Source: a virus
Taxonomy: Duplodnaviria > Heunggongvirae > Uroviricota > Caudoviricetes
Direction: 5' to 3' (one strand)
Length of the DNA: 5,615 nt
IMG/VR virus record: IMGVR_UViG_2700989509_000032
In this document: in pieces, positions 1,228 through 5,615 of the stretch
Layout: each line of letters opens with the position of its first letter
Position numbering within the stretch: position 1 is the stretch's first letter
Translations under genes and position numbers: made by a program
Notes under the pieces: generated by a model
The model's input: the letters and a program-made list of their open reading frames with translations, nothing else
What the model was told of the DNA's origin: nothing
Database searches by the model: none

Positions 1228-2179
1228 ATTTTTTTCCTGCATACTGCATTTGTTTTTTGTAAGGGGTACACAACATGGCGACAAAAGCAGTAAACGCAAA
1301 ATCACAAACAGTTGCGGCAAGGGTTCCGCATGAAGTTATGAACAATGTTGAGGCGGTAAAAATGCCTGGTGAAAGTACAGGGCAGTTTGTAACAGCAGCA
1401 TTAAAGCGAGAAGTTGAATACCGCCAGCGCCGCAAGGCCAAAGAACAGGAGTAACCATCACCAGCGCCGTGGTGTGAGGAACTACGGTGCATTGTTTTAC
1501 AGGGCTGCGCCATGACCAACAAAGAATCAACCAATACACCATCACCGGCACGGAAAAGACAGCGCAGAAAGATAGCGTACGAGCATGAGTCAAACAGATT
1601 CGCGCCCTGTGCGTTTATCCTTGAGAAATTCCTTAAAGAGTACAGGCGCACAAAAATGGGGTCGCATACCTGGAAAACATCGCGGCATGGCAATGTTAAA
1701 GAGCAGGAATAGCCCACCAGCAAGCCAGCATATTCACCATAATGACCCTCAGTTAAACATAGAGTCATTGGTGCAAAGCTGACACATTGCCCACCAGCCG
1801 CAAATCTGGCATTGTTGGCGATGCGTTCAAGTATGTAGCTTTCCCACTGGCGGCCCTCTGCGGTCGCCTTTGTTTTATCCAGAACGAAATCAGACATCAG
1901 ATTGATCAGCACCTGGCGACCTGACAAAATCGCATCAGTCGCGCCACCAGCAAAATTTTTTGCTTTCCGGACAGTGTGACCAACGACATTTTGCAGCAAA
2001 ATATTCTGCATTTCTGGCGTGCTGTAGTAACGGTGATCAGCGCCTTCACTCTGTGCGACCACAACGCTATAATCTGCCTCGTAGACAGTAAGCAATATGG
2101 CGCAGTAGGCTATTCGTTCACAAAGGCGCTCCGGCAACGGGGCGCTTTCTCTTTTTGTAACGGTCAGAGCGTTACACAT
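1226..2179 (-). CDS. Hypothetical protein translationally coupled to the antirepressor-like gene; only the N-terminal ~150 codons look coding, true 3' end uncertain
   Basis: ATG at 2177-2179 with GGAGG 9 nt upstream, overlapping the stop of the 2172..2972 gene (ATGTGTAA). The first 140 codons have 51 G-initial codons (36%); after about plus coordinate 1750 the frame becomes T1-rich and Cys-rich (antisense-like) but stays open to 1226, running antisense through the 1275..1454 gene. Confidence 0.35.
   Translation of the reverse strand: MCNALTVTKRESAPLPERLCERIAYCAILLTVYEADYSVVVAQSEGADHRYYSTPEMQNILLQNVVGHTVRKAKNFAGGATDAILSGRQVLINLMSDFVLDKTKATAEGRQWESYILERIANNARFAAGGQCVSFAPMTLCLTEGHYGEYAGLLVGYSCSLTLPCRDVFQVCDPIFVRLYSLRNFSRINAQGANLFDSCSYAIFLRCLFRAGDGVLVDSLLVMAQPCKTMHRSSSHHGAGDGYSCSLALRRWRYSTSRFNAAVTNCPVLSPGIFTASTLFITSCGTLAATVCDFAFTAFVAMLCTPYKKQMQYAGKK
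1275..1454 (+). CDS. Small ribbon-helix-helix-like DNA-binding protein, 59 aa (putative regulator or antitoxin-like)
   Basis: ATG at 1275 with AAGGGG 8 nt upstream; translation MATKAVNAKSQTVAARVPHEVMNNVEAVKMPGESTGQFVTAALKREVEYRQRRKAKEQE; TAA at 1452-1454. 26 of 59 codons start with G (coding signature), no Cys, basic C-terminal helix. Below the track length cutoff. Conflicts with the antisense long ORF 1226..2179. Confidence 0.5.
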   Translation: MATKAVNAKSQTVAARVPHEVMNNVEAVKMPGESTGQFVTAALKREVEYRQRRKAKEQE

Positions 2180-2972
2180 GGCTGTTTTCCTCCATGCGAC
2201 GGGCTAACCAACGCTGCGAAAGACGAATTAATTCAGCCTTCCGCTGGTGGTAGTCCTGGCCTAACTCAATCAGCGTGATATTGCTCTGCTCAAGGTAAGA
2301 AAGGTGCTCAAGCTGCAACGTGCTCATGTGGTCGCGTGGTTCGCCTGTAATGCCGTTCGCCAGTGCCCACTGTTTTGCAGTCATGCCACCCAGCACGATA
2401 CGCGCCAGCATGTTCGCTTCCGTGGTGTAGTGGTGCTGGAGTGTGTTTTTACCCAGTTCAGCCCGGTACGCCTCCAGCGCGGCACACATTGGCTTAAAGT
2501 AGCTGGCAACTGTGATACGGGCTTTCAGTTCCCGGCGTAACGCTGCGGAACGAACAGGCGCAACCTTGTGTAGCTCCTCCTCGCATTTGATAAAGTACTG
2601 GCGAACGGCGCGGCCCTGTTCGGTACGTTCGACCATCGCCAGTTCTTTCGCCATGTTCACTGTGATGATGTACTCAAGAGCGGTTTGCTGGCGAGATTTT
2701 GCGCTCACCGGATCGGGTCGGCTCAAATATTCAACAACCTCATAATCCACGCCTTCCGTGAACCCGTATTCTTCAATGCGCCCCTTGATCCACGAACGGA
2801 AAACGCGCCCTACACCTAACGCCTTATGTAACGCTCTGGCGCTAACAATAGTGGTTTCACTCCCGCCAATAACGCCGGAAATAATCGGGATAATTTCGCC
2901 GAAATTTTGCAGATTCTGGTTTTCAGGCCGAACGAAGCCCCGCCCCTGTACGGGCGTTTTTGGAAATTTCAT
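2172..2972 (-). CDS. Phage antirepressor-like protein (AntA/Rha-type N-terminal domain), 266 aa
   Basis: ATG at 2970-2972 with AGGAG 5 nt upstream. N-terminal region ...ARALHKALGVGRVFRSWIKGRIEEYGFTEGVDYEVV... and ...ITVNMAKELAMVERTEQGRAVRQYFIKCEEEL carry the recalled signature of antirepressor (AntA/Rha/Bro-N-like) domains. Family call is from memory. Confidence 0.75.
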   Translation of the reverse strand: MKFPKTPVQGRGFVRPENQNLQNFGEIIPIISGVIGGSETTIVSARALHKALGVGRVFRSWIKGRIEEYGFTEGVDYEVVEYLSRPDPVSAKSRQQTALEYIITVNMAKELAMVERTEQGRAVRQYFIKCEEELHKVAPVRSAALRRELKARITVASYFKPMCAALEAYRAELGKNTLQHHYTTEANMLARIVLGGMTAKQWALANGITGEPRDHMSTLQLEHLSYLEQSNITLIELGQDYHQRKAELIRLSQRWLARRMEENSHV

Positions 2973-3023
2973 AAAAACTCCTGCTATCGAATTAAGTTAC
3001 TTTTATTTGCTGGTGGATAGCTG

Positions 3024-3038
3024 GGGGCAATAGCCCCG
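3024..3038. other. Short GC stem-loop (GGGGC-AATA-GCCCC) in the alpA/antirepressor intergenic gap
   Basis: 5-bp perfect stem with a 4-nt loop, but no adjacent U-run on either strand, so not a canonical intrinsic terminator. Confidence 0.25.
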
Positions 3039-3049
3039 TAGCCATTTAA

Positions 3050-3247
3050 TCAGGTAGCTGTTCCGCGTGATTCCGCAATACGCTGATTAATCCACTCGTC
3101 AATTTCACTCTCAACGAAAGCAATAGCTCGCGAGCCAATTTTAACTGATGCAGGAAATTTACCTTGCCCCATAAGGCGATAAATCCATGCCTTGCTATAT
3201 CCAGTTCTACGCTGAACTTCTGTTAAACGAATAAGCGTATTTGACAT
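3050..3247 (-). CDS. alpA: AlpA/Vis-family prophage transcriptional regulator / excisionase-like HTH protein, 65 aa
   Basis: ATG at 3245-3247 with GAGG 7 nt upstream. MSNTLIRLTEVQRRTGYSKAWIYRLMGQGKFPASVKIGSRAIAFVESEIDEWINQRIAESRGTAT carries the AlpA-family hallmark E-x-EIDEW-x-x-QR and an HTH (TGYSKAWIYRLM). Confidence 0.9.
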   Translation of the reverse strand: MSNTLIRLTEVQRRTGYSKAWIYRLMGQGKFPASVKIGSRAIAFVESEIDEWINQRIAESRGTAT

Positions 3248-3315
3248 ATATTTACCTCATAACGTCTACTCAATTTGACGAGGTAATCATGGCACAGAAA
3301 TAACGAATATTTTCA

Positions 3316-3460
3316 TACCCTCAGGCCTAATGGTTACCGGAAGGAAATCTACCCTAAGGGTGATGGTAATCGGGAGGAAATCTACCCTAAGGGTGATGGT
3401 AAAATTGACGGGGAAGATAAAAAAATACCCTCAGGGTAACAGTAAATCACCCTCAGGGTA
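3316..3460. promoter_or_regulatory. Cluster of four complete and one partial ACCCT-N-AGGGT palindromes upstream of alpA; candidate operator or iteron array
   Basis: ACCCTAAGGGT at 3351-3361 and 3383-3393, TACCCTCAGGGTA at 3426-3438, ACCCTCAGGGT at 3449-3459, plus half-site TACCCTCAGG at 3316-3325. All lie in the 227-bp gap between the alpA start (3247) and the stop of the 3475..4272 gene. Confidence 0.5.
3339..3402. repeat. Tandem direct repeat, 2 x 32 bp, each unit containing an ACCCTAAGGGT palindrome
   Basis: 3339-3370 GGAAGGAAATCTACCCTAAGGGTGATGGTAAT and 3371-3402 CGGGAGGAAATCTACCCTAAGGGTGATGGTAA are near-identical head-to-tail copies. Confidence 0.85.
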
Positions 3461-3474
3461 TGCGGTATGGTGCG

Positions 3475-4272
3475 TTAATCCGGCTTTGCGTTCTTTTGGC
3501 TGTTGTCTCGGTTAATAGGGCAGGCAGTCCTCTCTATGAGCGTTGCAAGTGCATTACTTGCCCCCCACTGCTTAAGCTCCCTGGTTATCGCTTCTTGATT
3601 TCCCCTGGTGGCAAAATCATTTTCTGGATCGTAATTGGCCCACTCTCTGTTTCTAATCTCAATAGCCTTAGCTAATGGGTCTTTATCCCAGTATTTATAT
3701 AAGTGTATCGGGCGCTCTTGCTCTAACTGCTCTATCCTTGCCCTTAACTCTGCGTTTTCTTTTTCCAGCATTGCGATTTGGGATAATAAATCATCCTCTG
3801 TACGCAACTCTTTCTTTTCAATATCGCGTCCTTGTGCCTCGTCATTTTCAGAAGAGTTAGCGCCTTCCAGCTTCGTTAACGCGTCAAGGACATCGGGAAA
3901 AATTGAGAAAATTTCACCCCTTATAAATCCAATGTTCTCAAATTCGGGATCTTCCCAATAACCGGACACCAGAAAACCATTTTCATCCCTCTCACCAGGT
4001 AAACAACCACGTTTCCGAACCGCATTCAGATTTCTATAAAGAACATCATTATCAAATTCATCCCGATACGGGTTACAAAAAGATTCCAACAGCTTAAATT
4101 CATTTACTGTGTACAGGCGGATATGTTCTCCGCTTATTCTCCTGAGTATCCAAGTTATGACATCTGAAACATCATAATCATCACCAGCGACCTTAAGCAC
4201 GACCTCAAGAAATTCACGTAAAGAAATAAAATCTTTTTTGTATTCGTTTAATTCGGCATGAATATCAATCAT
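3475..4272 (-). CDS. Hypothetical protein, 265 aa, low-GC orphan gene between integrase and alpA; acidic with a central coiled-coil segment
   Basis: Track ORF 3475..4278 begins with GTG; the ATG two codons in (4270-4272) is preferred because GAGG lies 7 nt upstream (MIDIHAELNEYKKDF...). Sampled 60-bp blocks are about 33-40% GC against about 55-60% in int and the antirepressor gene. Coiled-coil-like LLSQIAMLEKENAELRARIEQLEQERP and an acidic linker. No family recognised. Confidence 0.7.
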   Translation of the reverse strand: MIDIHAELNEYKKDFISLREFLEVVLKVAGDDYDVSDVITWILRRISGEHIRLYTVNEFKLLESFCNPYRDEFDNDVLYRNLNAVRKRGCLPGERDENGFLVSGYWEDPEFENIGFIRGEIFSIFPDVLDALTKLEGANSSENDEAQGRDIEKKELRTEDDLLSQIAMLEKENAELRARIEQLEQERPIHLYKYWDKDPLAKAIEIRNREWANYDPENDFATRGNQEAITRELKQWGASNALATLIERTACPINRDNSQKNAKPD

Positions 4273-4400
4273 ACGCACACCTCAGCGTCCTCTACTGTAG
4301 TGGCTGTACCAGTCCGTCGAGGTGTACGGATTTTCGGGAGCGACCCTAGACACAGCCTTTTCTTTCGTCGCTCAAAGTCTACTACTGTATACTCAACCAG

Positions 4401-5615
4401 TCACCCGCATTTTCCGAACTCACCATGCACCACATTTCCGCCATGCTCGAGCGAATCCATATAATCAGCGTACCACTGAAGCATTTCCCGCCGCCCATCC
4501 AGATATTGCGCATGGTTGTATGTGCCACGAATTGAGTTTTTATCGACGTGCGCAAGCTGTGTCTCTATCCACGCGGTGTTATAGCCCTGCTCATGCAAAA
4601 TGGTGCTCATAGTGTGCCGGAAGCCATGACCAGTAACCTTTCCGTTATAGCCGATGCGTTTAAATACTTGGTTTATGCTAGCCTCGCTCATTGTTTTCCT
4701 TGGATCATTACGGCCGGGAAACATAAGCGGATAATTGCCAGTTAGTTCTTTAATCTGCCCAATAAGCGAAAGAGCCTGCTCAGACAAAGGCACTACATGA
4801 GGGCGACGCATTTTCATCCGTGAAGCAGGTATCTCCCAGATAGCCTTGTTGAGATCGATTTCATCCCATAATGCACCGCGCAGTTCGCCAGTCCGCAAAC
4901 CGGTGATAATCAGTAAACGAGCCGCCATAACAACCAATGCACTTCCTGAGTAACTGGACAATGCCTTGAAAAAATCAGGTAATTCTTTGGCTGTGAGGAA
5001 AGGATAATGATTAGATTCATGACCTTGCATCGCGCTGGTGAGATCCGGTGCAGGGTTATACTCAGCACGTCCAGTGACAATTGCATAGCGGAAAACTTCC
5101 CCACATCGCTGCCTCACTTTTTTGGCTTTTTCGGTAGCACCGCGCCCCTCGATGCGCCGCAGCACATTCAGCAGTTCAAGTGGTTTGATTTCGGCGATTG
5201 GTTTTTTGCCAATGTAAGGGAACACATCTTTGTTGAAGGCTTCGAGGATGTCTGAAGCATAACCAGCAGACCATTTTTTTAATTTGCTGCTGTGCCACTC
5301 AAGGGCAATATCTTTGAAGGTGTTGTTTAACTGCGTTTCCCGGGCAATCTTTTCCTCTCGTTTCGCTTCCATCGGATCGATACCCCCAGCGATACCCCTT
5401 TTAGCTTCTTCACGTTTTGCACGAGCATCAGCCAAGGTAACTTCAGGATACACACCTAGTGCTAACAGCTTCTCTTTACCAGCTACACGATACTTGAAGC
5501 GCCAATATTTTCCTCCACTAGGTTTTACCAAGAGATACAGACCACCACCATCAGCCAGCTTGTAAGCCTTCTCTTTTGGCTTGGCAGTGTCTATTTGACG
5601 GGCATTGAGTTTCAC
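4401..5615 (-). CDS. int: P4-type tyrosine recombinase (integrase), 404 codons in window; N-terminus at the window edge and possibly incomplete
   Basis: N-terminal KPKEKAYKLADGGGLYLLVKPSGGKYWRFKYR is the hallmark of the P4-integrase arm-binding domain. Catalytic-domain motifs are present: HxxR (GHGFRHTMSTIL) and the tyrosine region (RGTYNHAQY). First in-window codon is GTG at 5613-5615, so the true start may be just outside. Confidence 0.9.
   Translation of the reverse strand: MKLNARQIDTAKPKEKAYKLADGGGLYLLVKPSGGKYWRFKYRVAGKEKLLALGVYPEVTLADARAKREEAKRGIAGGIDPMEAKREEKIARETQLNNTFKDIALEWHSSKLKKWSAGYASDILEAFNKDVFPYIGKKPIAEIKPLELLNVLRRIEGRGATEKAKKVRQRCGEVFRYAIVTGRAEYNPAPDLTSAMQGHESNHYPFLTAKELPDFFKALSSYSGSALVVMAARLLIITGLRTGELRGALWDEIDLNKAIWEIPASRMKMRRPHVVPLSEQALSLIGQIKELTGNYPLMFPGRNDPRKTMSEASINQVFKRIGYNGKVTGHGFRHTMSTILHEQGYNTAWIETQLAHVDKNSIRGTYNHAQYLDGRREMLQWYADYMDSLEHGGNVVHGEFGKCG

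Follow-up and report, generated by a model that had tools for sequence, protein, structure and literature searches.

The 5,615 nucleotides analysed here, referred to below as the window, make up the integration end of a chromosomal island in E. coli, a satellite of the Gram-negative PICI/P4-like type. Its int gene, the RNA motif RF02996, orfX, a group of short palindromes, alpA and antA follow each other in this order, with all genes on the minus strand (coordinates are those of the window):

4401-5615, minus strand: int, a tyrosine integrase gene with a P4-type arm-binding domain
4289-4356, minus strand: Rfam motif RF02996, 'int-alpA RNA' (45.5 bits, E = 2.9e-7), 16 nt 5' of the orfX start
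3475-4272, minus strand: orfX, 265 aa (WP_000565285.1), encoding the candidate cognate binder of the palindromes
3248-3474: intergenic region of 227 bp, from orfX to alpA, which holds the palindromes
3050-3247, minus strand: alpA, 65 aa, Phage_AlpA/HTH_17 (Pfam PF05930, E = 2.4e-19; RefSeq WP_000072422.1)
2172-2972, minus strand: antA, a gene of the AntA/AntB antirepressor family

The layout of the island agrees with the four-zone organisation of Gram-negative PICIs (PMC10111431). An identical copy of the window is present in E. coli F9792, where the rest of the element contains an Icd-like gene and genes for DUF4222, P4-type primase, ProQ/FinO and PerC proteins. Relatives of the element are integrated at tRNA-Thr (beside proA) or tRNA-Gly. 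The PerC and primase genes of the F9792 island are annotated as frameshifted pseudogenes (positions 7546-7834 and 8743-10547 of the 28.5-kb locus L001), and that copy of the island may be unable to replicate alone. A full-length match to the Hfq-binding sRNA isrC (RF01387, 150 bits) was found at 5-127 on the minus strand, at the start of the Icd-like gene region, and a C4 antisense RNA, isrK or c4-a1b1 is found at the equivalent place in related satellites, which suggests an RNA immunity module of the P4 CI/C4 type. Two small genes, one of the YlcI/YnfO family (phrog_949, 1275-1454) and one of phrog_21027 (1512-1712), are located between the Ant gene and the Icd-like/isrC region on the plus strand, opposite to the rest.

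The palindromes lie upstream of alpA and downstream of the 265-aa ORF, where the sequence-only reading had placed them. Four perfect copies of ACCCTNAGGGT (ACCCTnAGGGT) and one degenerate copy are clustered within 145 bp at the candidate alpA promoter. They are listed here together with the other features of the intergenic region:

3449-3459: S5, ACCCTCAGGGT, exact match, the palindrome furthest from alpA, 14 nt past the orfX stop; its position is kept in relatives
3427-3437: S4, TACCCTCAGGGTA, 22 bp from S5; a pair spaced by 21-24 bp is kept in most arrays
3384-3394: S3, ACCCTAAGGGT, in the second 33-bp unit
3351-3361: S2, ACCCTAAGGGT, in the first 33-bp unit
3317-3327: S1, ACCCTCAGGCC, degenerate and promoter-proximal, with two mismatches and one good half-site only
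3330-3402: tandem repeat, period 33 bp, 2.2 copies, 92% matches (TRF)
3425-3461, minus strand: hairpin of S5 and S4, 15 bp with one G.G mismatch (terminator scan; MFE and centroid fold)
3312-3317, minus strand: candidate -10 hexamer TATGAA (TATGAT in some relatives), abutting S1, proposed from its conservation
3254-3284, minus strand: alpA leader hairpin ACCUCGU...AUGAGGU, predicted to sequester the Shine-Dalgarno sequence

By chance, 0.09 +/- 0.32 sites would be expected with one mismatch allowed (dinucleotide-preserving shuffles of the window), and none of the 200 shuffles contained at least four. The sequence-only reading had counted five palindromes, of which four are perfect and the copy at 3317, with its two mismatches, is degenerate. 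It had also described a perfect tandem duplication of 32 bp. The duplication exists, but its period is 33 bp and it is not perfect, since 3 of 33 positions distinguish the full units, 3330-3362 and 3363-3395, from each other (91-92% identity). The 26-nt cores of the repeat, 3345-3370 and 3378-3403, are 96% identical, with a single mismatch at the last base. S1 is part of CCCTCAGGCCTAATGG (3317-3333), a hybrid of two wide palindromes of relatives, CCCTCA-N4-TGAGGG and CCATTA-N4-TAATGG; in the window the hybrid CCATTAGGCCTGAGGG at 3318-3333 is non-palindromic. Among the relatives, one form of this proximal wide palindrome occurs in L127, L167, L171 and L174-L179 and the other in L168, L185, L202 and L212, and no co-variation of the form with the AlpA sequence was seen across the loci. 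Two TTGACG boxes (3274-3279 and 3404-3409, plus strand) are embedded in a 12-nt direct repeat (AATTTGACGAGG and AAATTGACGGGG) and point away from alpA.

In the sequences scanned, the motif is confined to such arrays. No further perfect copy is present in the rest of L001, related enterobacterial loci amounting to about 100 kb have none beyond their arrays, and a random 50-kb stretch of the same chromosome contained no perfect motif and two one-mismatch matches, which is the chance level. A dispersed element of the REP, BIME or ERIC kind, and with it the genome-wide repeat that the sequence-only reading had allowed for, was rejected on these counts. Since the rest of the element has no copy of the motif, an activator of the other operons does not use it as a general target. 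When contigs were scanned for pairs of palindromes separated by 10-35 bp, the only matches were unrelated repeats from Chloroflexota, Roizmanbacteria and similar groups. The core CCTNAGG is the Bsu36I/Eco81I restriction site; a link to restriction was dropped, since the outer A and T are conserved as well and no restriction-modification genes are present. Arm sites of the integrase were also rejected, because over 2 kb separate the array from the att end on the far side of int.

Comparison of related loci showed what is kept in the array and what is allowed to change. The intergenic region is present in 148 of 5,426 complete E. coli genomes, with lengths of 194, 227 and 260 bp, and of 293 bp in strain ISHS7, which correspond to one, two, three and four copies of the 33-bp unit. 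The unit is thus in effect a VNTR, whose copy number in E. coli ranges from 1 to 4 (four in L122 at 3290-3430, three in L145, one in L149). In the IMG/VR loci L139 and L151, a deletion of 22 bp merges the two distal palindromes into one. Both natural indel sizes, 33 bp and 22 bp, are whole helical turns, and the register of the sites is preserved. Loci from E. coli (L123, L124), Citrobacter (L126), Salmonella (L127, L128) and Yersinia (L156) contain 3-5 T-ACCCT-n-AGGGT-A sites each, and the arrays of relatives as a whole 3-6 sites. In the diverged loci the palindromes stay while the surrounding intergenic sequence diverges. The 26 distinct arrays comprise 47 perfect sites, 30 with one mismatch and 18 with two, and not one of the 48 variant sites carries a compensatory double change. 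Any base can stand at the centre (A 11, C 24, G 18, T 24), and the flanks are biased to T and A, which gives the consensus ccTtACCCTnAGGGTaa. Distances between neighbouring sites (n = 60) fall into clusters at 21-24, 29-34, 42-44, 54-55, 66-67 and 76 bp, with a period of about 10.8 bp (resultant vector 0.78), and the sites therefore lie on one face of B-DNA. The conservation of sequence rather than structure, the lack of compensation and the phasing suggest that the palindromes near the alpA promoter are protein-binding DNA sites, in line with the multi-site operator which the sequence-only reading had proposed.

The S5/S4 hairpin also deserves consideration as an RNA structure. It lies 14 nt past the orfX stop codon and is followed by a U7 tract that is encoded by the A-run 3419-3425, and the predicted fold of the complete intergenic RNA is more stable than those of shuffled sequences (z = -3.3). 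In the lineage of the window, and only there, the hairpin and U7 form a credible intrinsic terminator. The corresponding T-run is missing in L123, L124, L126, L168 and L174, all of which bear palindromes, and termination is therefore a lineage-specific extra and not the conserved function. One might nevertheless assume that the array acts as RNA, forming the 3' end of the int-orfX transcript with hairpins that terminate transcription or stabilise the mRNA and insulate alpA, and that no dedicated DNA-binding protein is involved. This would account for the 15-bp stem and U7 on the coding strand after orfX and for the folding score, as well as for the clear hairpins that follow the stop codon directly in other orfX clades (in one of them a canonical terminator) and for an array between convergent genes in L246, where a terminator would be expected. 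We consider this explanation quite unlikely. Besides the loss of the U-tract in the five loci named above, the flanks diverge around a stem of constant sequence, the reverse of what the evolution of terminators would produce, and the compensatory changes that a paired RNA would be expected to show are absent. Moreover, the sites extend up to the alpA -10 region, and multiples of about 10.8 bp, as found in their spacing, are characteristic of B-DNA and not of RNA. No Rfam family matched 3248-3474 at E <= 1; the only Rfam matches of the window, RF02996 and isrC, are elsewhere.

On the alpA side, the array runs into the probable promoter. A GGTATGAWAAT block directly follows the proximal site and is conserved across the diverged loci. 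We place the alpA promoter from this conservation, since a scan of 2900-4450 with the sigma-70 consensus found no promoter. The proposed -10 hexamer is not preceded by a good -35, which is in keeping with this negative scan and with an activator-dependent or tightly controlled alpA promoter. If the proposed -10 hexamer is taken as the reference, the sites would be centred at about -20 (the proximal one), -51, -84, -127 and -149. Further downstream, six pairs of the stem in the alpA leader persist across 14 diverged sequences; most of the changes are G-U wobbles, and there is one double change. This hints at translational control of alpA via the leader hairpin.

The distribution of the array was used for the assignment of a cognate protein. 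Protein searches turned up orfX-family genes with overall identities as low as 32%, and an array comes after each of them: the genes concerned share 60%, 38-39% and 32% identity and come from Citrobacter, Salmonella and E. coli, and a split homologue with 41% identity in Yersinia is also followed by one. Among non-redundant IMG/VR loci of the two enterobacterial clades of the OrfX C-terminal domain, all 30 have the array. In the reverse search, 33 of the 48 IMG/VR stretches with a close pair of perfect palindromes adjoin a gene for the orfX C-terminal domain, as counted at the BLAST cut-off used, and 3 more are cut at the contig end, with alpA alongside. The remainder are unrelated environmental repeats, except L246. 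This locus is a prophage-type immunity region with a Cro-like operon and encodes a distant protein of the orfX family (hhalign 97.9%, E = 5e-13). Its orfX gene is followed directly by two copies of TACCCTCAGGGTA and two degenerate copies, and downstream there is no alpA; a convergent XRE/Arc gene is found instead. An operator of alpA can thus not be the only role of the array.

The converse arrangement, alpA without the array, was also found. The AlpA protein of L125 is identical to that of the window except for two N-terminal substitutions, and the intergenic region of this locus (3209-3467) does not contain a single ACCCT or AGGGT. The L125 ORF between int and alpA gave no BLASTP match to orfX, and only its C-terminal domain is a distant homologue (hhalign 90%). 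AlpA of the experimentally studied PICI EcCIMP1 (locus L225; PMC11773190) has the same recognition region, RRTGYSKAWIYRL, and EcCIMP1 possesses neither orfX nor RF02996 nor ACCCTnAGGGT anywhere in its 21.5 kb. In the Salmonella clade L154, L180 and L182, on the other hand, a near-identical motif, TACCGTGAGGGTA, is kept despite a very different AlpA. The replication module differs under the same array as well, L001 having a primase of the P4 type and L130 an AAA_25 protein. The forward and reverse searches and the dissociations in L125, EcCIMP1, L246 and L154 show that the array goes with orfX; neither AlpA or AntA nor the integrase or the replication module accounts for its distribution.

The sequence-only reading had named an AlpA/Vis-type winged-helix protein as a possible binder, with another dimeric regulator as the fallback, and had also had the antirepressor-like protein in view. 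AntA was rejected, since it is also encoded in L125 and EcCIMP1, which are both free of the palindromes. AlpA was rejected from the pattern of co-occurrence over loci with and without orfX and alpA, and the fallback fits the evidence best. In a broader form, the palindromes could be operators for some protein other than OrfX, be it AlpA in autoregulation, a host factor or a regulator of the helper phage by which alpA is turned on, with OrfX as a mere neighbour. Two points favour this: every locus with ACCCTnAGGGT beside alpA has an AlpA of the RRTGYSKAW[IL]YRL type, and OrfX is acidic and has no recognisable DNA-binding fold. We still judge such a binder to be unlikely. For AlpA, the dissociations just described stand against it, as does the lack of the motif in the rest of the element, where AlpA should act too. 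A helper-phage or host factor would leave unexplained why the array and orfX moved as a block into a context without alpA and why the motif changes between the orfX clades. Moreover, neither P2 Cox boxes (TTAAAGNCA repeats) nor the TGT-N12-ACA sites of Ogr/Delta were found in 3248-3474, and their counts over the window are at the chance level.

Repeated and phased short motifs in a mobile element could also be iterons of a replication origin or packaging repeats bound by terminase, as the sequence-only reading had considered. P4-type satellites have repeated alpha-binding sites at ori and crr, and cos or pac regions contain repeated TerS sites. The sites of the array are palindromes, however, and not direct repeats, and they are located about 4 kb from the primase gene (14312-14420 for the array and 8743-10547 for primase in L001). 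The same array occurs with the two different replication modules mentioned above and tracks orfX, but no replication or packaging gene, and EcCIMP1 replicates and is packaged without such sites (PMC11773190). A role in replication or packaging is therefore highly improbable.

The motif changes with the clade of the protein. Where the C-terminal domain belongs to another clade, the short palindromes after the gene have a different sequence, namely ACTATnATAGT or CTATCA/TGATAG, CTATATAG and ACCGTGAGGGT, and CCATT...AATGG palindromes come after the distantly related protein of L125. This co-variation at the level of clades supports a cognate pair of motif and domain. The link between the array and the adjacent orfX holds in loci with both orfX and alpA, with alpA only and with orfX only, the co-variation being at clade level only. 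Rules of specificity at the level of residues (e.g. RNREW with ACCCT) failed on L246, L126 and L158: L246 (VQRDYW...) and L126 (IRRDYW) have ACCCT sites and L158 (TRNREW) has ACTAT sites. Neighbouring features are inherited together, so that a part of the co-occurrence of array and orfX is simple linkage. Non-functional hitch-hiking of the array takes the probability that is left by the other explanations. The L125 ORF in the position of orfX (3468-4181, minus strand, 237 aa) is followed by the palindromes CCATTCATAATGG and AATGG-N6-CCATT, which suggests that int-proximal proteins form a wider superfamily whose members each have a site set of their own.

OrfX consists of a variable N-terminal region, an acidic linker, a leucine-zipper-like coiled coil (about aa 159-186) and a conserved C-terminal helical domain (about aa 190-255). 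The coiled coil and the C-terminal domain were modelled with an AF2 pLDDT of 89.7, and the predicted architecture fits a dimer that reads a dyad. No match to OrfX was found in Pfam, PHROGs, NCBIfam or PADLOC, no known fold was matched, and a sequence search of the PDB returned coiled-coil noise only. A coiled coil with a helical domain is compatible with DNA binding, without being diagnostic of it. The protein is acidic overall: the pI of the N-terminal part is 4.5, and the C-terminal domain is roughly neutral (pI 5-9). In the literature that could be searched, we found no description of the orfX family or of the palindrome motif.

The RNA motif RF02996 belongs to the same cassette. It ends 14-20 nt upstream of the start codon of an orfX-family gene in 13 of 16 diverse loci. 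Besides the window, it was detected in L127, L128, L130, L154, L156, L160, L167, L185, L195, L198, L212 and L223, it is kept in L160 where no integrase adjoins, and it is absent from L125 and EcCIMP1, both without a close orfX. From this placement and these absences, RF02996 appears to belong to orfX, as its leader, and not to int or alpA.

Taken together, we favour an explanation in which dimeric OrfX binds the palindromes as a multi-site operator and thereby controls the alpA promoter or insulates it, and we give it about an even chance, the binding itself being inferred from distribution and sequence. OrfX would dimerise through its leucine-zipper-like coiled coil, and one dimer would occupy each two-fold symmetric TACCCTnAGGGTA site. 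Since the sites lie on one face of the helix, from just past the orfX stop to the alpA -10 region, bound OrfX would have two effects: it would determine how active the weak alpA promoter is, most likely as a repressor, and it would block transcripts of int-orfX from running on into alpA. In the lineage of the window, the S5/S4 hairpin with its U-tract may reinforce this block as an intrinsic terminator. The variable N-terminal region of OrfX may receive the inducing signal, e.g. a helper-phage protein. Expansion and contraction of the 33-bp unit, which comprises three helical turns, would change the number of operators and leave their phasing intact. Several points weigh against this explanation: OrfX is acidic, its residues do not pair cleanly with the motifs, and the proximal site is a wider palindrome of another kind. 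A control hub for excision or induction, as the sequence-only reading had assumed, is plausible.

A more far-reaching proposal is possible but doubtful, namely that orfX and the array are an unrecognised master switch in a subset of Gram-negative PICI/P4-like satellites. A new DNA-binding family, with a leucine zipper and a novel C-terminal domain, would hold alpA off via a phased array of variable copy number, and the fast-evolving N-terminus would sense a helper-phage protein. The switch as a whole would be the functional counterpart of SaPI Stl, and the regulator gene would be controlled by RF02996 as its leader.

In the current view, Gram-negative PICIs have no master repressor and rely on the activator AlpA (PMC6092414). 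The way in which helper phages turn on the gene of this master activator is an open question, and the inducer has not been identified (PMC6092414; PMC11773190). A conserved and portable cassette composed of the RF02996 leader, orfX and the phased array is located at the control point of alpA in many Enterobacterales satellites, and OrfX, a protein without a known fold, can be named as a candidate regulator for the gating of the master activator in some Gram-negative satellites. In addition, the orphan Rfam motif RF02996 gains a gene context, the natural variation in operator number (1-4 units) could tune thresholds of induction, and the natural assumption that the sites are AlpA operators is corrected.

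Among the known systems, the array would work most like the operator arrays of temperate phages, and its position and possible logic resemble SaPI Stl, although it is a member of neither group by sequence or fold. As in lambda OR/OL, P22 and 434, several two-fold symmetric sites are arranged in helical register with a regulator gene adjacent, and the promoter-proximal copy probably overlaps the promoter that starts the lytic or induction programme. In contrast to those phages, the putative binder OrfX has no HTH of the Cro/CI kind and belongs to no known family or fold, orfX is co-directional with and upstream of the operators instead of divergent, and the sites are 11 bp long with a free central base and vary in number through a 33-bp VNTR. 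With Stl of the Gram-positive PICIs, OrfX would share the role of a satellite regulator that is encoded beside int and gates induction, and a modular build of a conserved part and a rapidly diverging part able to sense helper-phage proteins. Unlike Stl, to which it shows no sequence or structural similarity, OrfX is encoded in only a subset of the elements, and its function is proposed here from the genomic context.

EcCICFT073 and EcCIMP1 are elements of the same type, with int, alpA, an Ant/Bro zone, a C4-like RNA and primase, and with the same AlpA HTH; their alpA promoter is inducible by the helper and autoregulated by AlpA. The module described here is an extra cassette between int and alpA when compared with EcCIMP1, which has no orfX, RF02996 or ACCCTnAGGGT. 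The array is not the AlpA-autoregulated promoter of these elements, since at least EcCIMP1 is without the whole cassette. RF02996 shares the int-alpA interval and the conserved cassette with the array, but it is a separate element (4289-4356) on the 5' side of orfX and does not overlap the palindromes. The late promoter PLL upstream of vis in P4 is similar in that a satellite promoter for an AlpA/Vis homologue is preceded by phased protein-binding repeats, which in P4 couple the promoter to the helper phage. The Cox boxes are direct 9-bp repeats and the Ogr/Delta sites have the form TGT-N12-ACA, neither of which occurs here, whereas the motif of the array is palindromic and linked to a gene encoded by the element itself.
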